Source: Candidatus Omnitrophota bacterium
Lineage (GTDB): Bacteria > Omnitrophota > Gorgyraeia > 2-01-FULL-45-10
Length of the DNA stretch: 64,000 bases
Direction: 5' to 3'
NCBI GenBank assembly: GCA_028699255.1
Contig: JAQVUX010000003.1
Location: 146,654-210,653, forward strand
Shown: positions 9,445-62,262 of the stretch, in pieces
Numbering within the stretch: position 1 is the stretch's first letter
Layout: every line of letters starts with the position of its first letter
Program-made: the position numbers and the translations under genes
The notes under the pieces: model-generated
What the model was told of the DNA's origin: nothing
Databases searched by the model: none
Seen by the model: the letters and a program-made list of their open reading frames with translations, nothing else

Positions 9445-10662
9445 ATGGCAAAGAAGACGATAAAAGACGTGGATTTAAAGGGCAAGAGGGCTCTTATCCG
9501 GGTCGATTTTAACGTTCCCCTCGATGACAATCTGAATATAACCGACGATATAAGGATACGGTCAGCCGTTCCTACTATAAAATACGCGTTGGATAAAGGC
9601 GCAAAAGTCATTCTCATGAGCCATCTCGGCAGGCCGGATGGAAAGCCGGACGAGGCTCTGCGGTTGTCTCCTGCGGCAAAACGTCTGCGGGAACTTCTTG
9701 GTAGGCCCGTTACCGCTCTTAAAGATTGCGTAGGCAGTGATGTGGAAAAAGCGGTTTCGGACATGAAGCCCGGCGATGTTATATTGCTCGAGAATTTGAG
9801 GTTCCACGCCGAAGAAGAGAAGAACGACCCCGCCTTCGCTAAAAAGCTCGCGTCCTTAGGCGACGTATTTATCAACGACGCGTTCGGCACAGCCCACAGG
9901 GCGCATGCGTCGACGGAAGGAGTTACGCACTACCTGCCGTCTGTTGCCGGGTTCCTATTGGAGAAAGAGATACAGTATCTCGGCAATACCGTTGCCGATC
10001 CGAAGAGGCCGTTCGTCGCGATACTCGGCGGAGCGAAGGTCAAAGACAAGATAAAGGTTATAGATAATCTGCTCGATAAGGTCGACGCGCTTCTTATAGG
10101 CGGCGGCATGGCGTACACATTCCTGAAAGCGCAGGGCAAGACTATAGGTTCTTCCAAGCTGGATAAAGACGGCCTCGAGACGGCTAAGAACGCGCTCGAT
10201 AAAGCCACTAAAAAGAAGATACCGATATTGCTTCCTGTCGACAACGTCATCGCGGATAAATTTGACGCGAATGCCGAAACACAGATCGTCGGTGAGAATA
10301 TACCGGACGGATGGATGGGGCTCGACATAGGCCCGAAGACGATAAAGCTTTTTGAAGACAAGCTGAAAACCGCCAAAACCATTCTATGGAACGGGCCGGT
10401 CGGCGTATTCGAAATGGATAAGTTTGCCAAAGGTACCGAAGAAGTCGCGAAGTTCATAGCGGGCCTTAAAGGCGCTATTTCTATTATAGGCGGCGGAGAC
10501 ACGGCCGCGGCCATGGCTAAGTTCAAAGTTGACGGCAAAATGACACACATATCGACGGGCGGCGGCGCTTCGCTGGAATATCTCGAAGGGCGCGGCCTTC
10601 CGGGGATAGACGCGCTGATGGATAAAGGCTGTTCCTGCTGTAGTTGCGGAGGGGCGAAATAA
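9445..10662 (+). CDS. pgk: Phosphoglycerate kinase with an unusual Cys-rich C-terminal tail ([11 protein letters not shown])
   Basis: The full PGK fold is recognisable: [38 protein letters not shown]. Confidence 0.95.
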
Positions 10663-11447: not shown

Positions 11448-11768
11448 ATGTTATACGGGTTGGTCATTGCGATACACGTGATAGCGTCGTTGGTGCTGAT
11501 AGCCGTTATATTACTGCAGGCGGGCCGCGGCGGTGGGTTAAGCGAAACATTCGGCGGTAGCTCGACACAGACGCTTTTCGGCACGAAGACGTCGGTTTTC
11601 TTGGCGCGCGCTACGGCGGCCTCGGCGATAATTTATATAATTACATGCCTTGCGCTGGCAGTCATGACGAGCCACCAGAGCAAATCTCTGGTGTCGCAGG
11701 GTACCACGATGCCTATGCCTGTCCAGGGCGGCGCAAATCCTTTAGCCGACGAGCCGATGGATTTCTAA
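11448..11768 (+). CDS. secG: Preprotein translocase subunit SecG
   Basis: LLQ.GRGGGLS...FGG motif between two TM helices, in the conserved position after tpiA. Confidence 0.85.
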   Translation: MLYGLVIAIHVIASLVLIAVILLQAGRGGGLSETFGGSSTQTLFGTKTSVFLARATAASAIIYIITCLALAVMTSHQSKSLVSQGTTMPMPVQGGANPLADEPMDF

Positions 11769-11785
11769 GAAATGATGAGATAAAT

Positions 11786-13390
11786 ATGTTCGTTGTACGA
11801 AAGATAAAAATACCGCTGATTATCCTGGCGGTATTTTTTTTGTTCTCATCCGGTTCGTCGGGCGCTTCCGATGACCCGCATGGCGATGCCATAGTCGTAA
11901 GTTCTATAAGCGATCCCAGAACGCTTATTCCGATACTTGCTTCGGATTCGGCCTCAAGCGATATCTGTGGCATGATATTTAACGGCCTTATCAAATACGA
12001 TAAAACCGTTCGCATAACAGGCGATCTCGCCGAGAATTGGGAAATCTTAGACGGCGGCGCTGTCATAGTATTCCATCTGAAAAAAAATGTGCGCTGGCAT
12101 GACGGCGCGCCATTTACCGCAAAAGACGTACTATTCACGTACGAAAAATTGGTTGATCCCGTAGTAAAGACGCCGTACAGCGGTGATTTCGACAGGATAA
12201 AATCGGTAGAAATCCCGGACGAGTATACGGTTAAAATTATTTACAAGGAGCCGTTCGCGCCGGCGCTTTCCAGCTGGGGCATGTGGATAATGCCGGAACA
12301 TTTACTGAAAGGCGAAGATCTGAATAAGTCGTCTTTTTCGCGTAATCCCATAGGTACCGGGCCGTATAAGTTCAAATCGTGGAGGACGGGAGAGAAGATA
12401 GAGCTCGTCTCGAATCGCGACTATTTCGAAGGAAGGCCTTATATCGATAGATACATATACCGCATAATACCCGACGACGCCACGATATTTCTCGAACTCC
12501 AGACGCAGGGCGTGGATATGGCCGGGCTATCGCCTCTGCAATATGCGCGGCAGACGGGTAACAAATTCTTCCGCGGGCATTATAATAAATTCAGATATCC
12601 AGGTTTCGGTTATACCTATATGGCTTACAATCTCGCCGATCCGAGATTCGGCGACATCAGGGTGCGGCAGGCTATAAACTACGCCGTCGATAAAGACGCG
12701 ATGGTGAAGGCGATATTCTTCGGCCTCGCCGAGGTTACGACCGGGCCTTTTATGAAGGATTCGTGGGCGTACAATAAGGATGTGAAGCCAGCTCCGTACA
12801 ACATCGCGAAGGCAAGGGCGCTTTTGCGCGAAGCGGGTTGGGAGGATACCGATAAGGACGGGTGGGTCGAAAAGGAGAGAAGGGTTTTCGAGTTCACGAT
12901 CCTCGTAAATCAGGGAAACGGTGAGCGGCAACGCGCCGCCGAGATGATACAGAATGACCTTAAAGCCGTCGGGATAAGGATGAAGATACGCGTCGTCGAG
13001 TGGAGCACGCTCATCGGCGAATTCCTGGGCAAGAAGCGTTTTGAGGCGGTGCTCATGGGATGGTTCCTCGGCCGCGACCCGGATAATTACGATATATGGC
13101 ATTCGTCAAAGACTCGAGAGGGGGAGTTTAATTTTATCGGGTATAAAAACGCGGAGGTCGACCGCCTGCTTGCGGAAGGCCGGCGCACGTTCGACGAAGC
13201 AAGGCGCGCGGCGATATACCGCCGGGTGCATGAGATCATCTACGCGGATCAGCCGTACATGTTCCTCTATTCGGCCGATATGTTGCCGATAGTGAATTCG
13301 CGCTTCCGTAACGTCGAATCCTCGCCCATCGGCATCGGGTACAATTTTATAAAGTGGTACGTGCCGAAAAGTGAGCAACGATACAGGTAA
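11786..13390 (+). CDS. ABC transporter substrate-binding protein, family 5 (oligopeptide/dipeptide/nickel, OppA/DppA-like)
   Basis: A signal peptide starts at the ATG at 11786 (MFVVRKIKIPLIILAVFF). Family 5 SBP fold motifs follow (NPIGTGPYKF, W.SNRDYF). The tabulated start at 11645 overlaps secG. Confidence 0.8.
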   Translation: MFVVRKIKIPLIILAVFFLFSSGSSGASDDPHGDAIVVSSISDPRTLIPILASDSASSDICGMIFNGLIKYDKTVRITGDLAENWEILDGGAVIVFHLKKNVRWHDGAPFTAKDVLFTYEKLVDPVVKTPYSGDFDRIKSVEIPDEYTVKIIYKEPFAPALSSWGMWIMPEHLLKGEDLNKSSFSRNPIGTGPYKFKSWRTGEKIELVSNRDYFEGRPYIDRYIYRIIPDDATIFLELQTQGVDMAGLSPLQYARQTGNKFFRGHYNKFRYPGFGYTYMAYNLADPRFGDIRVRQAINYAVDKDAMVKAIFFGLAEVTTGPFMKDSWAYNKDVKPAPYNIAKARALLREAGWEDTDKDGWVEKERRVFEFTILVNQGNGERQRAAEMIQNDLKAVGIRMKIRVVEWSTLIGEFLGKKRFEAVLMGWFLGRDPDNYDIWHSSKTREGEFNFIGYKNAEVDRLLAEGRRTFDEARRAAIYRRVHEIIYADQPYMFLYSADMLPIVNSRFRNVESSPIGIGYNFIKWYVPKSEQRYR

Positions 13391-13545
13391 AATTTCCTCT
13401 TGTAAGGAGTGGAAAATTTAATCGGTGCCGTCGTGGCGTGAGAGGGCACCCCCGGAGTGGAAAAACGTAGTATATTCTTCGAGCGAGGACAAAATTATTC
13501 CGAGTATTCGAAGAATAATTTTGGACGAGTCGAGAAGTTCATTTT

Positions 13546-13911
13546 ATGAATCAATGGAAATGGTATGTTTATATAATCGAATGCAAGGACGGCACATACT
13601 ATACGGGAATGACTTGGAAACCCGACCTCAGATATGATCAGCATCTTTCCGGTCTGGGTGGAGTCTATACTGCAAAGCATGGTGTGAAAAAAATGGCTTA
13701 TATCGAGGAACATGAGGAGATTGAGGCGGCACGAACGAGAGAAAAACAAATTAAAGGATGGGGCCAGAAAAAGAAGAGGAAATTAATATCGGGGCAGTGG
13801 GGGGAAATAGTGGTAGTATTTTGTTTAGTTGCTTTGGATGTTCTCGACTCGCTCCTGCTTCGGCTTCGCCTCGCAGTCGCTCGCTCGAACAATAATATTT
13901 TGGAAGATTGA
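13546..13911 (+). CDS. GIY-YIG nuclease superfamily protein (YhbQ/UPF0213-like) with a repeat-derived C-terminal extension
   Basis: [18 protein letters not shown]...RY.QH..G.G..YT matches the GIY-YIG core. The last ~35 codons run through a degenerate copy of the palindromic repeat family at 13845-13895. Confidence 0.7.
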
Positions 13912-13925
13912 AGATTAAGGAAAAA

Positions 13926-14906
13926 ATGTTGCATTACATCGCTAAAAGATTGGCGGGGCTCATACCGGTATTTTTCGGGATAACGATAGTCTCGTTCCTC
14001 GTGATACATATCGCGCCGGGAAAACCGACCGACATGCAGACGAGCTTAAACCCGAAGGTATCTTTCGAGGCGCGCGAGCGGCTTGACAAATTGTATGGGC
14101 TCGACAAGCCGCTTCACGTCCAGTACTTCGATTGGTTCAAGCGCTTCTGCTTTTTCGACTTCGGACGCTCGTACGTCGACGATAGGCCCGTCGCTTCCAA
14201 GATCGCCGAACGCATCCCGATAACACTGCTCATAAACGCGCTGGCGATGATATTGATATTAGCTGTCGGGATACCTCTGGGCGTTATCTCGGCGGTAAAA
14301 CGCGGTTCGTTCCTCGACAAGTCCACAGCCGTTATCGCTTTTATCGGATTCTCCGTGCCGGAGTTCTGGCTCGCCCTGCTTTTAATGAGTTTATTCGCGA
14401 TAAATTTAAATTGGCTTCCGATATCGGGCATCAAATCCCTCGATTTCGAATATTATTCCATAACCGGAAAGATATTGGACGTCGCCAGGCACCTGATACT
14501 GCCGGTGGCGATAACGGCGTTCGGGGCTCTGGCGGGCATCTCCAGGTACATGCGCTCGGCCATGATCGGTGTTATCCATCAGGACTATATCAGGACGGCG
14601 CGCGCGAAAGGTCTCGACGAGCGGCAGGTCATATACCGGCACGCGCTGAAGAACGCGGCGTTACCGGTCATCACGATATTGGGATTGTCCGTTCCCGGGC
14701 TCATAGGCGGCAGTGTCATATTCGAATCGATATTCGCCATCCCGGGGATGGGCCGGTTATTTTATGAATCCGTTATGGCGAGGGACTACCCGACGATAAT
14801 GGGCATCCTCTCGATAGGCGCGATACTTACTTTACTGGGAAATCTCCTCGCCGATATAGCGTACTCATACGCCGATCCGAGGATACGCGTTACGGAGACA
14901 GAATGA
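13926..14906 (+). CDS. ABC transporter permease (OppB/DppB-like)
   Basis: Six TM segments and an EAA-like motif. The ATG at 13926 follows RBS aaggaaaaa. The tabulated TTG at 13908 is less likely. Confidence 0.85.
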
Positions 14907-16497: not shown

Positions 16498-17240
16498 GCA
16501 TATTGATATGCGATAATTTAAAAAAATATTTCCCGGTACGCAGAGGATATCTCCGAAAGGACTTCGGTACGGTCAAAGCCGTCGACGGCGTAAGTTTCGA
16601 GATAGCCGCGGGAGAGACTTTCGGGCTCGTCGGGGAATCCGCCTGCGGCAAGACGACTTTGGGAAAGCTCATCCTCGGTATCTTAAAGCCGGATTCGGGC
16701 GGGGTGAAACTGTCGACCCGTCGCCGCCAGGTGATATTCCAGGACCCGCATAGTTCGCTCGATCCGAAGATGCGGGTGCGCGATATAATAGCGGAAGGGC
16801 TTTTACTGCACGGCGCAGTAACGCGTAGACTGGAGATAGATAAAAAAGTCCGCGACGCGCTCGGGTTAGTTAATCTGCTCGCGACATCCGCGGATAAATA
16901 TCCCCATCAATTTTCAGGAGGGGAGCGCCAGCGCATCGCGATAGCGCGCGCGGTGATAACCGGCCCGGAGTTTATCGTCTGCGACGAGCCTGTGTCGAGC
17001 TTAGACGTGACCGTGCAGTTGCAGATATTGAGACTTTTAAAAAAGATACAGAAGGATTTTAAAATAACTTATCTTTTTATAAGCCACGACCTGAGAGTGG
17101 TCAGATACATGTGCGACAGGGTTGCGGTAATGAAGGATGGGCGGATAATAGAAGAGGGCCCGGCCCGGTTGGTATATTCGAACCCGTCGGAGCCGTACAC
17201 CAGATTATTACTTTCATCGATTCCGGACTATAAAATATGA
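16494..17240 (+). CDS. ABC transporter ATP-binding protein (OppF/DppF-like)
   Basis: Walker A GESACGKTT, signature FSGGERQR, Walker B VCDEPVS. Confidence 0.9.
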   Translation: MSILICDNLKKYFPVRRGYLRKDFGTVKAVDGVSFEIAAGETFGLVGESACGKTTLGKLILGILKPDSGGVKLSTRRRQVIFQDPHSSLDPKMRVRDIIAEGLLLHGAVTRRLEIDKKVRDALGLVNLLATSADKYPHQFSGGERQRIAIARAVITGPEFIVCDEPVSSLDVTVQLQILRLLKKIQKDFKITYLFISHDLRVVRYMCDRVAVMKDGRIIEEGPARLVYSNPSEPYTRLLLSSIPDYKI

Positions 17241-17995
17241 ACCTTCGGGATAGAGCAAAGAAGATATTATATCTGCTTGAAGCCGCGTACGGCCGTCCCG
17301 CGCTGTTTGTCAAAGACGAGCCCGTGGATGTTCTTGTGCGCACGATATTGTCGCAAAATACGTCGGACAAAAACTCTGTCCCGGCTTTTAACGCGCTCAA
17401 AAAACATTTCGTGTCGTGGGAGAGGGCGCTTTGCGCGCCGGTACCGGAGATAACAGAGATAATAAAACATGCGGGCCTGGCGAATATAAAAGCGCGCAGG
17501 ATAAAAGCGGTTCTCGCGGAGATAAAAAAGCGCGAAGGCAGGATTGACTTGGCCGGTCTTGACCGTTTAGACGATGAAGGCGCGGGTGAATACCTCGAAT
17601 CGCTGGGCGGGGTGGGGCCGAAGACGGCCTCGTGCGTCCTTTTGTTCGCGTTCGATAGGCCCGTAATGCCGGTTGATACGCATATTTTCCGGGTGGCTAA
17701 ACGGTTGTCCCTTATAGGCGCCGGTACGGACATAAAACAGGCGCATAAAGCGTTGACAAAAATTATTCCAAAGGACTTGATATACGCCTTCCATTTATGT
17801 ATAATAGTGCACGGTCGCAGGACCTGCAAATCGCAAACCCCAAAGTGCGGGGTTTGTGTTGTTTATGGCCTTTGTGGATATGAAAAGAAATCCGTCATTG
17901 CGAGCGAAGCGAAGCAATCTAAAAACGAGATTGCTTCGGATTCGCCTGCCTTCGGCAGTCAGCCGCATCCTCGCAATGACGATGAAAGCGAGTAA
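17237..17995 (+). CDS. nth: Endonuclease III-family HhH-GPD DNA glycosylase with a [4Fe-4S] loop; the C-terminal ~35 aa are encoded by an inserted palindromic repeat
   Basis: HhH-GPD motifs (LVRTILSQNTSD, GVG.KTA) and a C-x6-C-x2-C-x5-C cluster (CKSQTPKCGVCVVYGLC). The tail VIASEAKQSKNEIASDS... coincides with the repeat at 17892-17981. Confidence 0.75.
   Translation: MNLRDRAKKILYLLEAAYGRPALFVKDEPVDVLVRTILSQNTSDKNSVPAFNALKKHFVSWERALCAPVPEITEIIKHAGLANIKARRIKAVLAEIKKREGRIDLAGLDRLDDEGAGEYLESLGGVGPKTASCVLLFAFDRPVMPVDTHIFRVAKRLSLIGAGTDIKQAHKALTKIIPKDLIYAFHLCIIVHGRRTCKSQTPKCGVCVVYGLCGYEKKSVIASEAKQSKNEIASDSPAFGSQPHPRNDDESE
17892..17981. repeat. Nested palindromic repeat, full copy: CGTCATTGCGAG-GAAGCAATCT-loop-AGATTGCTTC-CTCGCAATGACG
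   Basis: Seen directly. The outer inverted repeat is cgtcattgcgag/ctcgcaatgacg and the inner one is gaagcaatct/agattgcttcg. Related copies occur at 62181-62262, 24107-24145, 35085-35117 and 13845-13895. Confidence 0.8.
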
Positions 17996-24106: not shown

Positions 24107-24145
24107 CCGTCATTGCGAGCGAGGCGAAGCCGAGCGAAGCAATCT
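24107..24145. repeat. Half-copy of the nested palindromic repeat (CCGTCATTGCGAGCGAGGCGAAGCCGAGCGAAGCAATCT)
   Basis: Seen directly. It lies 20 nt upstream of the start of the large ORF and abuts its RBS (aagagggg). Confidence 0.7.
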
Positions 24146-34884: not shown

Positions 34885-35137
34885 GGGAAGGTAAAATTTT
34901 TCGCGGTCCGGGAGGAAGTCCCTTTCGGGATTCATGCCTCGCGCCGGACGCGAAAATTTTGACCATGCAAAATTTCCGCTCGAGAAAAATTGCTCGGACG
35001 GTGCCTCGCAATTTTTACGCCGGCGCTTGGCACGAATCCCTGCGGGCCTTCCTCCGGTGAGAGGGCGAAAAATTTTACAAAGTGCGTCAGTGCGAGAAGG
35101 GCGAAGCAATCTCGCTTGAGAAATAAGAGAGGAATAT
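34885..35137. repeat. ~250 bp imperfect long palindrome (MITE-like structured element) with A4T4 cores, filling the argG-argH spacer; its 3' end carries a degenerate half-copy of the GCGAG...GAAGCAATCT repeat
   Basis: Seen directly. Outer arms tttcgcggtccgggaggaag / cttcctccggtgagagggcgaaa; inner arms gggattcatgcc / ggcacgaatccc; motifs gcgaaaatttt and gcaaaattt. The sequence cgtcagtgcgagaagggcgaagcaatctcgc lies at 35085-35117. Confidence 0.6.
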
Positions 35138-54921: not shown

Positions 54922-54997
54922 GGGGCAGTAGCTCAGCTGGGAGAGCACCACGTTCGCAACGTGGGGGTCGTGGGTTCGAATCCCATCTGCTCCACCA
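54922..54997 (+). tRNA. tRNA-Ala (anticodon CGC)
   Basis: Folded by hand: acceptor GGGGCAG/CUGCUCC with the G3:U70 Ala identity pair, D-arm GCUC-AGCUGGGA-GAGC, anticodon stem CCACG/CGUGG, loop UUCGCAA, T-arm GUGGG-UUCGAAU-CCCAU, and an encoded CCA. Confidence 0.9.
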
Positions 54998-62180: not shown

Positions 62181-62262
62181 CCGTCATTGCGAGGAGCCGA
62201 AGGCGACGAAGCAATCTCTAAAACGAGATTGCTTCGCCCCTAAAAGGGCTCGCAATGACGTA
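62181..62262. repeat. Full copy of the nested palindromic repeat (CCGTCATTGCGAG-...GAAGCAATCTCTAAAACGAGATTGCTTCG...-CTCGCAATGACG)
   Basis: Seen directly in the fabF-acd spacer. It has the same architecture as the copy at 17892-17981. Confidence 0.8.

Follow-up and report, generated by a model that had tools for sequence, protein, structure and literature searches.

Two described systems lie closest to the repeat family considered here. The first is the class of CGTC-tagged REPs, to which the text of Di Nocera, De Gregorio and Rocco (2013, PMC3733652) assigns an unpaired CGTC tag (TGTC or CCTC being tolerated), a stem of 8-9 bp that starts with A-T, a loop of 4-5 nt and a short tail, with atypical loops in Bradyrhizobium CGTC-1. 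As described there, these REPs are mostly head-to-head dimers near ORF ends and are sometimes intragenic, notably in repair genes; the class takes in dRS3 of Neisseria along with RPE-4 and RPE-6 of Rickettsia. According to that paper, no dedicated transposase was found for CGTC REPs, and many REPs are argued to work at the RNA level. The second system is that of the Ssn nuclease. According to Chenal et al. (2025, PMC11893778), Ssn is a single-domain GIY-YIG nuclease of ~94 aa (cd10448) whose gene is flanked by the Neisseria NTS, CGTCATTCCCGCGMAVGCGGGAATCYRG, or by related hairpins, the SRMs, in an IS-like repeat-gene-repeat layout. Ssn cuts these hairpins as ssDNA and in Neisseria limits transformation by motif-carrying DNA. 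As described there, the Neisseria and Wolbachia enzymes bind the hairpin strand-specifically in ssDNA and cut a few nt 5' of the tag, while dsDNA and RNA are not attacked by this type of nuclease.

The window, a 64-kb stretch of DNA from Candidatus Omnitrophota, contains a dispersed repeat that an earlier note, made from the letters of the sequence, had read as a nested palindromic element of the MITE or REP kind. We consider it probable that this repeat, a unit with a direction, belongs to the CGTC-tagged REP / NTS-SRM class and is the recognition site of an Ssn GIY-YIG endonuclease; its dimers and monomers would have spread from cassettes of the form unit-ssn-unit. The repeat sequences are present where the earlier note had placed them and exceed chance expectation. 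Within the 64-kb window, the 11-mer GTCATTGCGAG has 7 matches at up to one mismatch compared with 1.1 expected, and the unit pattern GTCATTGCGAGN{3,33}GAAGCAATC has 5 matches compared with 0 in 100 shuffles. All six units of the main family, family A, begin with CGTC and are arranged as two head-to-head dimers and two monomers (Table 1), which agrees with a REP-like dispersed palindromic family having two full copies and additional single units. Every one of the six lies between, or at the ends of, co-directional genes. At three of the A sites a start codon follows 20-27 nt downstream, and the abutting of gene starts that the earlier note described is plain at, for example, the monomer at 24108-24145.

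Other searches of the window added little. No Rfam family reached the gathering threshold at any repeat copy; the only Rfam match in the window is a tRNA gene at 54922-54994. Searching generically for GTCAY together with a 5-nt stem of any sequence was unspecific, giving 10 matches in the window versus 11.5 in shuffles, and we therefore make no claim for further variant families there. A literature search with the raw repeat sequence returned unrelated primer matches only.

Table 1. Repeat units in the 64-kb window and the genes that they adjoin or enter (positions in nt of the window).
Feature	Position	Strand	Description
Family-B unit	13473-13537	+	TATTCTTCGAGCGAG (also TATTSTTCGAGCGAG), loop, CGAGTCGAGAAG; ends 9 nt before the ssn start codon
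ssn-like single-domain GIY-YIG gene	13546-13911	+	121 aa; Pfam PF01541, E 5.7e-15
Family-B unit	13841-13894	-	Inverted partner of 13473-13537; inside the extended ssn ORF
nth (Endonuclease III) ORF	17237..17995	+	252 aa; Pfam HhH-GPD; ends ...GYEKKSVIASEAKQSKNEIASDSPAFGSQPHPRNDDESE
A dimer in the 3' end of nth	17893-17981		89 nt, CGTC...GACG; spacer AAAAACG between the units
First unit of the nth dimer	17893-17920	+	Loop CGAAGC
Second unit of the nth dimer	17928-17981	-	32-nt loop
A monomer	24108-24145	+	Ends 20 nt before the ATG (24166) of a large ORF
A monomer	35085-35112	+	One mismatch in the 5' box (GTCAGTGCGAG); ~25 nt before ATG 35139 of a gene called argH in the earlier note
A dimer	62182-62260		Between a fabF-like stop (62168) and an acyl-CoA dehydrogenase start (62287)
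First unit of this dimer	62182-62217	+	
Second unit of this dimer	62226-62260	-	

The family-A unit consists, in order, of YGTC, ATTGCGAG, a variable GC mini-hairpin, GAAGCAAT and C, and measures ~28-55 nt. A 5-bp stem starting with A-T (ATTGC/GCAAT) is followed by a G/A-rich internal loop and then by the variable mini-hairpin, most often GCGNAGC, while a short C-Y-R tail closes the unit. This architecture changes how the full copies are to be read. The sequences that the earlier note had assigned to an outer and an inner inverted repeat are present, but they do not form two nested repeats: each "nested palindrome" is two copies of one directional unit in head-to-head orientation. The 5' box CGTCATTGCGAG is the "outer" repeat and the 3' box GAAGCAATC the "inner" repeat, and both are parts of a single unit. 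One unit occurring twice in opposite orientation also explains why "half copies" exist, as these are monomers.

To describe the unit beyond the window, we used a sample of 454 exact-box units from loci fetched from public data. GTC is preceded by C in 237 units and by T in 196, together 433 of the 454. The 3' end reads GCAAT-C-Y-(C/A)-G, Y being T in 202 units and C in 238. The segment between the boxes ranges from 4 to 45 nt and is most commonly CGNAGC (N = A in 65, C in 26, T in 18 and G in 13). Together with the preceding G this becomes GCGNAGC, which folds into a very stable mini-hairpin of DNA around a GNA triloop. Standard folding parameters undervalue mini-hairpins of the GNA-triloop type. 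Longer inter-box inserts contain an internal stem of at least 4 bp in 45% of cases, compared with 20% in shuffled inserts. Covariation shows the short ATTGC/GCAAT stem to be genuine: the vicinity of ssn genes contains 14 different stems of 5 nt, all with perfectly complementary partners, and the density of such covarying stems is 3.7/kb near the genes versus 0.18/kb far away. Sister variants in relatives use the stems ATTCT/AGAAT and ATCCT/AGGAT, among others.

Folded singly with standard DNA parameters, A units form only weak hairpins (-2.7 to -8.1 kcal/mol, z about 0), compared with -9.0 kcal/mol and z -5.5 for the canonical NTS. Both window dimers fold into the long hairpins that the earlier note had foreseen for the transcript, with -45.8 and -45.9 kcal/mol as RNA (z -5.2 and -8.5) and -30.9 and -30.0 kcal/mol as DNA (z -5.8 and -8.5). 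Head-to-head pairs also dominate outside the window, where the fetched loci contain 152 of them, mostly of 60-140 bp. Same-orientation tandem arrays of units were seen at L046 2695-2818, at L127 1372-1506 and upstream of ssn in L286, with periods of 33, ~50 and 55 bp.

One of the two window dimers lies within nth. Among the best 120 homologues listed, Nth proteins are mostly 220-231 aa long and typically align to 87% of the query. The orthologue P0001 is 94% identical to the window protein, has 224 aa and ends in ...GYKDKKLYRGI. In DNA alignment its locus (L241) has the gene order of the window without the 89-nt dimer and therefore constitutes an empty site. The codons of the window gene are repeat-derived from about 17891 on (SVIASEAKQS...DESE), and the tail that they displace is KDKKLYRGI. 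Because an insert of 89 nt is not divisible by three, the old Nth tail was replaced. In the new frame, a TAA stop lies 2 nt ahead of the GTG with which the downstream GNAT gene begins, so nth and its neighbor remained adjacent; the net gain in length is 28 aa. As the earlier note had proposed, the dimer is an insertion that shifted the stop codon and lengthened the protein, a conclusion confirmed at the level of sequence by the empty site and by the shorter orthologues.

The same site bears on how the repeat moves. The earlier note had called it a MITE, which would make it an IS deletion derivative moved in trans by a DDE transposase recognizing the outer inverted repeats. The copies are indeed short, palindromic and dispersed, and their presence differs between relatives. 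However, comparison of the window with the empty site in L241, between which a few bases flanking the dimer position have diverged, did not reveal a target-site duplication at the nth insertion. What the earlier note took for outer and inner repeats do not represent the terminal inverted repeats of a single element, one-ended monomers are common, and the ends are conserved across phyla, which is unusual for MITE families. In addition, the genes bracketed by units encode GIY-YIG nucleases and not transposases. Movement as a classical MITE is thus extremely improbable.

The second dimer offers a comparable before-and-after site. In the relatives L330 and L332, whose acyl-CoA dehydrogenase is 95% identical, the fabF-acd spacer is empty and measures 37-41 nt. 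A third relative, L331, carries a different sister-variant dimer in this spacer (9879-9952), with the units GTCATCCTGA...AAGGATC and GTCATTCTGAG...GAAGAATC, and the site appears to have been hit independently in L331 and in the window. Presence and absence of copies at nth and fabF-acd indicate turnover of these elements. Elsewhere in the Omnitrophota relatives, A units lie inside giant ORFs downstream of etf genes (L331 15783, 16227 and 17061; L332 6774), whose products are 3144 and 5028 aa as called, the ORFs being truncated by the end of the locus. With A units lying within such ORFs, intragenic copies may be frequent in these huge genes.

These empty sites also weigh on the possibility that the repeat acts mainly at the RNA level, as a 3'-end stabilizer, an attenuator or a translational control hairpin, with the link to Ssn being incidental. 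Transcript hairpins of about -46 kcal/mol, the location of all six A units between or at the ends of co-directional genes, and the three sites 20-27 nt upstream of a start would suit such a role, as would the RNA action that the text of Di Nocera et al. (PMC3733652) ascribes to many REPs. Yet the sites are empty in close relatives with identical gene order, so a conserved regulatory need is not apparent. A T-tract is absent after both dimers and neither is called terminator-like, and on these grounds an intrinsic-terminator reading was dropped. Furthermore, the conserved parts include a tag and a tail that stay unpaired and have a direction, as suits recognition by a protein rather than a plain RNA stem. 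We regard a mainly RNA-level role as unlikely; side effects of the dimers on mRNA may nevertheless occur.

Recognition by an Ssn-type protein brings the GIY-YIG gene of the window into consideration. Its product contains a single Pfam domain, GIY-YIG only; the nearest PDB entries are UPF0213 proteins, and it is 40-47% identical to the products of canonical NTS/SRM-flanked genes that the same profile retrieves. Judged from these similarities and from its surroundings, the gene is a putative Ssn homologue; it is natively bracketed by its own variant units. They belong to family B, a sister variant of A with the pattern TTCGAGCGAG...GAGTCGAGAA. No other ssn gene lies in the window; the units around this one are B-type, not A-type, and in the tree it falls into a clade with other B-flanked genes. 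The stretch at 13845-13895, which the earlier note took for a degenerate reverse copy of the main repeat, is in fact a family-B unit with its partner at 13473-13537. The earlier note further held that the GIY-YIG ORF had been extended by an insertion in the same way as nth, and a different history emerges. Homologues are normally ~89-98 aa long compared with 121 aa in the window, and P0226, which is 84% identical to the window protein, has 89 aa together with the same B units. In alignment, an ~8-nt indel relative to L322 removed the window stop codon, so the window ORF runs into the downstream B unit.

The P0226 ssn gene with its B units occurs as an identical cassette in four contigs (L322-L325) that represent three contexts, and homology between two of the P0226 cassette contexts stops where a unit has its outer edge. 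Further small palindromes, e.g. AAAAATTGC...GCAATTTTT, lie in the 300 nt that precede this gene (L322 2695-3000 and the equivalent in L323), and this palindrome-bearing stretch is common to contigs with differing upstream genes. In the window, the ssn cassette of unit, gene and unit splits the oppA-like/oppB-like pair of a peptide ABC-transporter cluster (11645-14906). In a Doudnabacteria MAG (L135 4567-4923), the two arms of an A dimer enclose several units of the B type (TTCGAGC...GAGTCGAGAA), and a 32-nt tandem repeat accompanies them.

We then asked how generally units and Ssn genes go together. Among 240 motif-selected loci, a single-sequence phmmer search gave 3 GIY-YIG matches and a profile search 2; the adjacency is therefore invisible from the repeat side, and it was tested from the protein side. 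For this we used 80 Ssn-like GIY-YIG loci from metagenomes, selected by peptide patterns only with a profile of the window protein and its homologues, and counted a unit as near a gene when it lay within 300 bp with at most one mismatch per box. An A unit is near 54 of the 80 genes (68%) and on both sides of 36 (45%). The density of A units is 3.17/kb near the gene versus 0.082/kb in the farther flanks, a local enrichment of ~39-fold, and most often the order is unit(+), gene, unit(-). A Planctomycetota MAG (L186) has a GIY-YIG gene of 96 aa within a complete A dimer between pheT and pheS. Inverted-arm pairs of more than 200 bp are mostly unrelated neighboring copies around ordinary genes, and L186 alone enclosed an ssn gene. 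Short dimers have spacers that vary too much (8-39 nt) to show an origin of the dimers by loss of the gene from a cassette.

Among the genes found with the profile that gathered these loci is one (L268) that has the exact Neisseria NTS consensus in its flanks and a product 47% identical to the window protein. At L268 102-344 this ssn gene has two in-frame stops, with the exact consensus on both sides, and looks like a decaying cassette. In one neighbor-joining tree, motif class tracks protein clade, with B-flanked, canonical-SRM-flanked and A-flanked genes each grouping together. The published SRM sequence, HGTCWYN(0-2)YYVSBRHN(0-5)WNVSBRGN(0-2)RNCYNB, has 0 matches in the window and recovers none of the six units, while the Neisseria consensus used as a control does match. 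Near the metagenomic Ssn-like genes it matches at only 4 of 80, compared with the 54 of 80 that have an A unit. The commonest repeat class around Ssn genes in this sample thus escapes the published pattern, and surveys of Ssn motifs that use it may undercount.

The bracketed genes speak to another known way of moving such repeats, in which a REP/REPIN family is mobilized by a RAYT, an IS200/IS605-type Y1 transposase, as are GTAG-tagged REPs. The general look is similar, with hairpin units, head-to-head dimers and locations at gene ends, and the text of Di Nocera et al. (PMC3733652) treats both REP classes in parallel. However, the tag here is CGTC or TGTC and not GTAG, and that same text states that no dedicated transposase was found for CGTC REPs. 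The genes that the units flank are GIY-YIG genes, with a unit nearby in 54 of 80 Ssn genes. Mobilization by a RAYT is very unlikely.

The two-box pattern is not confined to the lineage of the window. An exact search of IMG/VR and of GTDB species genomes returned, among the matches listed, the exact 20-nt boxes in Bradyrhizobium, Sphingomonas, Micavibrio, Pedobacter, Mucilaginibacter, Flavobacterium and Chloroflexi. Also among the matches listed are cyanobacteria (Nostoc, Microcoleus), Patescibacteria, Planctomycetota, Zixibacteria, Helicobacter rodentium and Sporomusa, and at least some of the matches listed are in IMG/VR. The box sequences are conserved across many bacterial phyla. The search of related genomes that the earlier note had recommended thus found the same boxes well beyond close relatives; the family that it described stands, and to this are now added the link between repeat and nuclease and the distribution across phyla, neither of which it contained.

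Taken together, the association of repeat and gene, the conservation across phyla, the covariation of stems, the insertion polymorphism and the co-variation of motif class with protein clade are demonstrated here. A scheme in which Ssn acts on the units would connect them. Points that speak against this assignment are the weak folding of single A units, stem and loop sizes unlike those given for CGTC families, the failure of the published SRM sequence to match, the B-type units of the one ssn gene in the window, UPF0213 proteins as the nearest solved structures, and the mere 2 Ssn-like ORFs among the 240 motif-selected loci. By analogy with the Neisseria and Wolbachia enzymes, binding and cutting by Ssn would extend to the A and B variants. 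Given a strand-specific cut, a head-to-head dimer would offer one cleavable site per strand. Cassettes of unit, ssn and unit would then be the source of solo units and dimers, which would spread by way of ssDNA intermediates or by repair-templated copying. Landing sites would mostly be just outside ORFs and occasionally in the last codons, as in nth.

It is possible, but we hold it only tentatively, that unit-ssn-unit cassettes are themselves autonomous mobile elements, moved by the GIY-YIG ssDNA nuclease by way of hairpin intermediates in single-stranded form. Solo dimers would be the non-autonomous derivatives of such cassettes and ATTGCGAG...GAAGCAAT the most widespread form. If true, this would be a mechanism of transposition or homing not yet demonstrated in bacteria, still reshaping genes in lineages such as Omnitrophota. 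The form most widespread across many phyla would also be one that the published SRM search pattern does not see.

Whichever way the units move, an anonymous-looking repeat can now be tied to a recently characterized enzyme family. The nth and fabF-acd sites are clean natural before-and-after pairs in close relatives and can be used for studying how such repeats spread. The nth case illustrates that repeats can rewrite the C-terminus of a protein without parting the gene from its immediate downstream neighbor. In annotation, terminal peptides of the form VIASEAKQS... or ...RNDG should be taken as repeat-derived.

Compared with the CGTC-tagged REPs, the family-A unit has the same CGTC or TGTC 5' tag, the same A-T start of the stem and a short 3' tail (C, Y, C/A and G after GCAAT). 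Head-to-head dimers predominate in both, copies adjoin ORF ends and are sometimes intragenic, and insertions often fall in DNA-repair genes, of which nth is one here. The host range is wide in both cases and includes Bradyrhizobium, sphingomonads and Micavibrio. The units differ in having a 5-bp stem, then an internal loop and a mini-hairpin whose length varies from 4 to 45 nt, versus the stem of 8-9 bp and loop of 4-5 nt given in PMC3733652; this exact sequence type may be one of the CGTC-1 subtypes of that paper.

The window unit and the Neisseria NTS have CGTCATT...AATC(YRG) in common, and in both systems the repeats bracket single-domain GIY-YIG genes of ~95 aa as repeat-gene-repeat. The proportions are close as well: any unit in 68% and units on both sides in 45% here, compared with 71% and 42% in PMC11893778. 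The B variant beside the window ssn gene differs in being without any CGTC tag, the host is Candidatus Omnitrophota, and cleavage is attributed to these variants by analogy.

Rickettsia palindromic elements (RPE) resemble the nth insertion in that a palindromic repeat joins an ORF and adds residues to a conserved protein. An RPE, however, is an internal in-frame segment, whereas the 89 nt here, not a multiple of three, create a new C-terminus in place of the last codons. The REP/BIME and REPIN-RAYT systems likewise have hairpin units in inverted pairs dispersed near gene ends and a repeat-flanked single-copy gene for a hairpin-specific ssDNA enzyme, but they combine a GTAG tag with an HUH/Y1 enzyme, compared with CGTC or TGTC and a GIY-YIG enzyme here. 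The kind of element is therefore already described; the novelty lies in sequence variants outside the published pattern, in the addition of a host phylum and in clean examples of the remodeling of gene ends.
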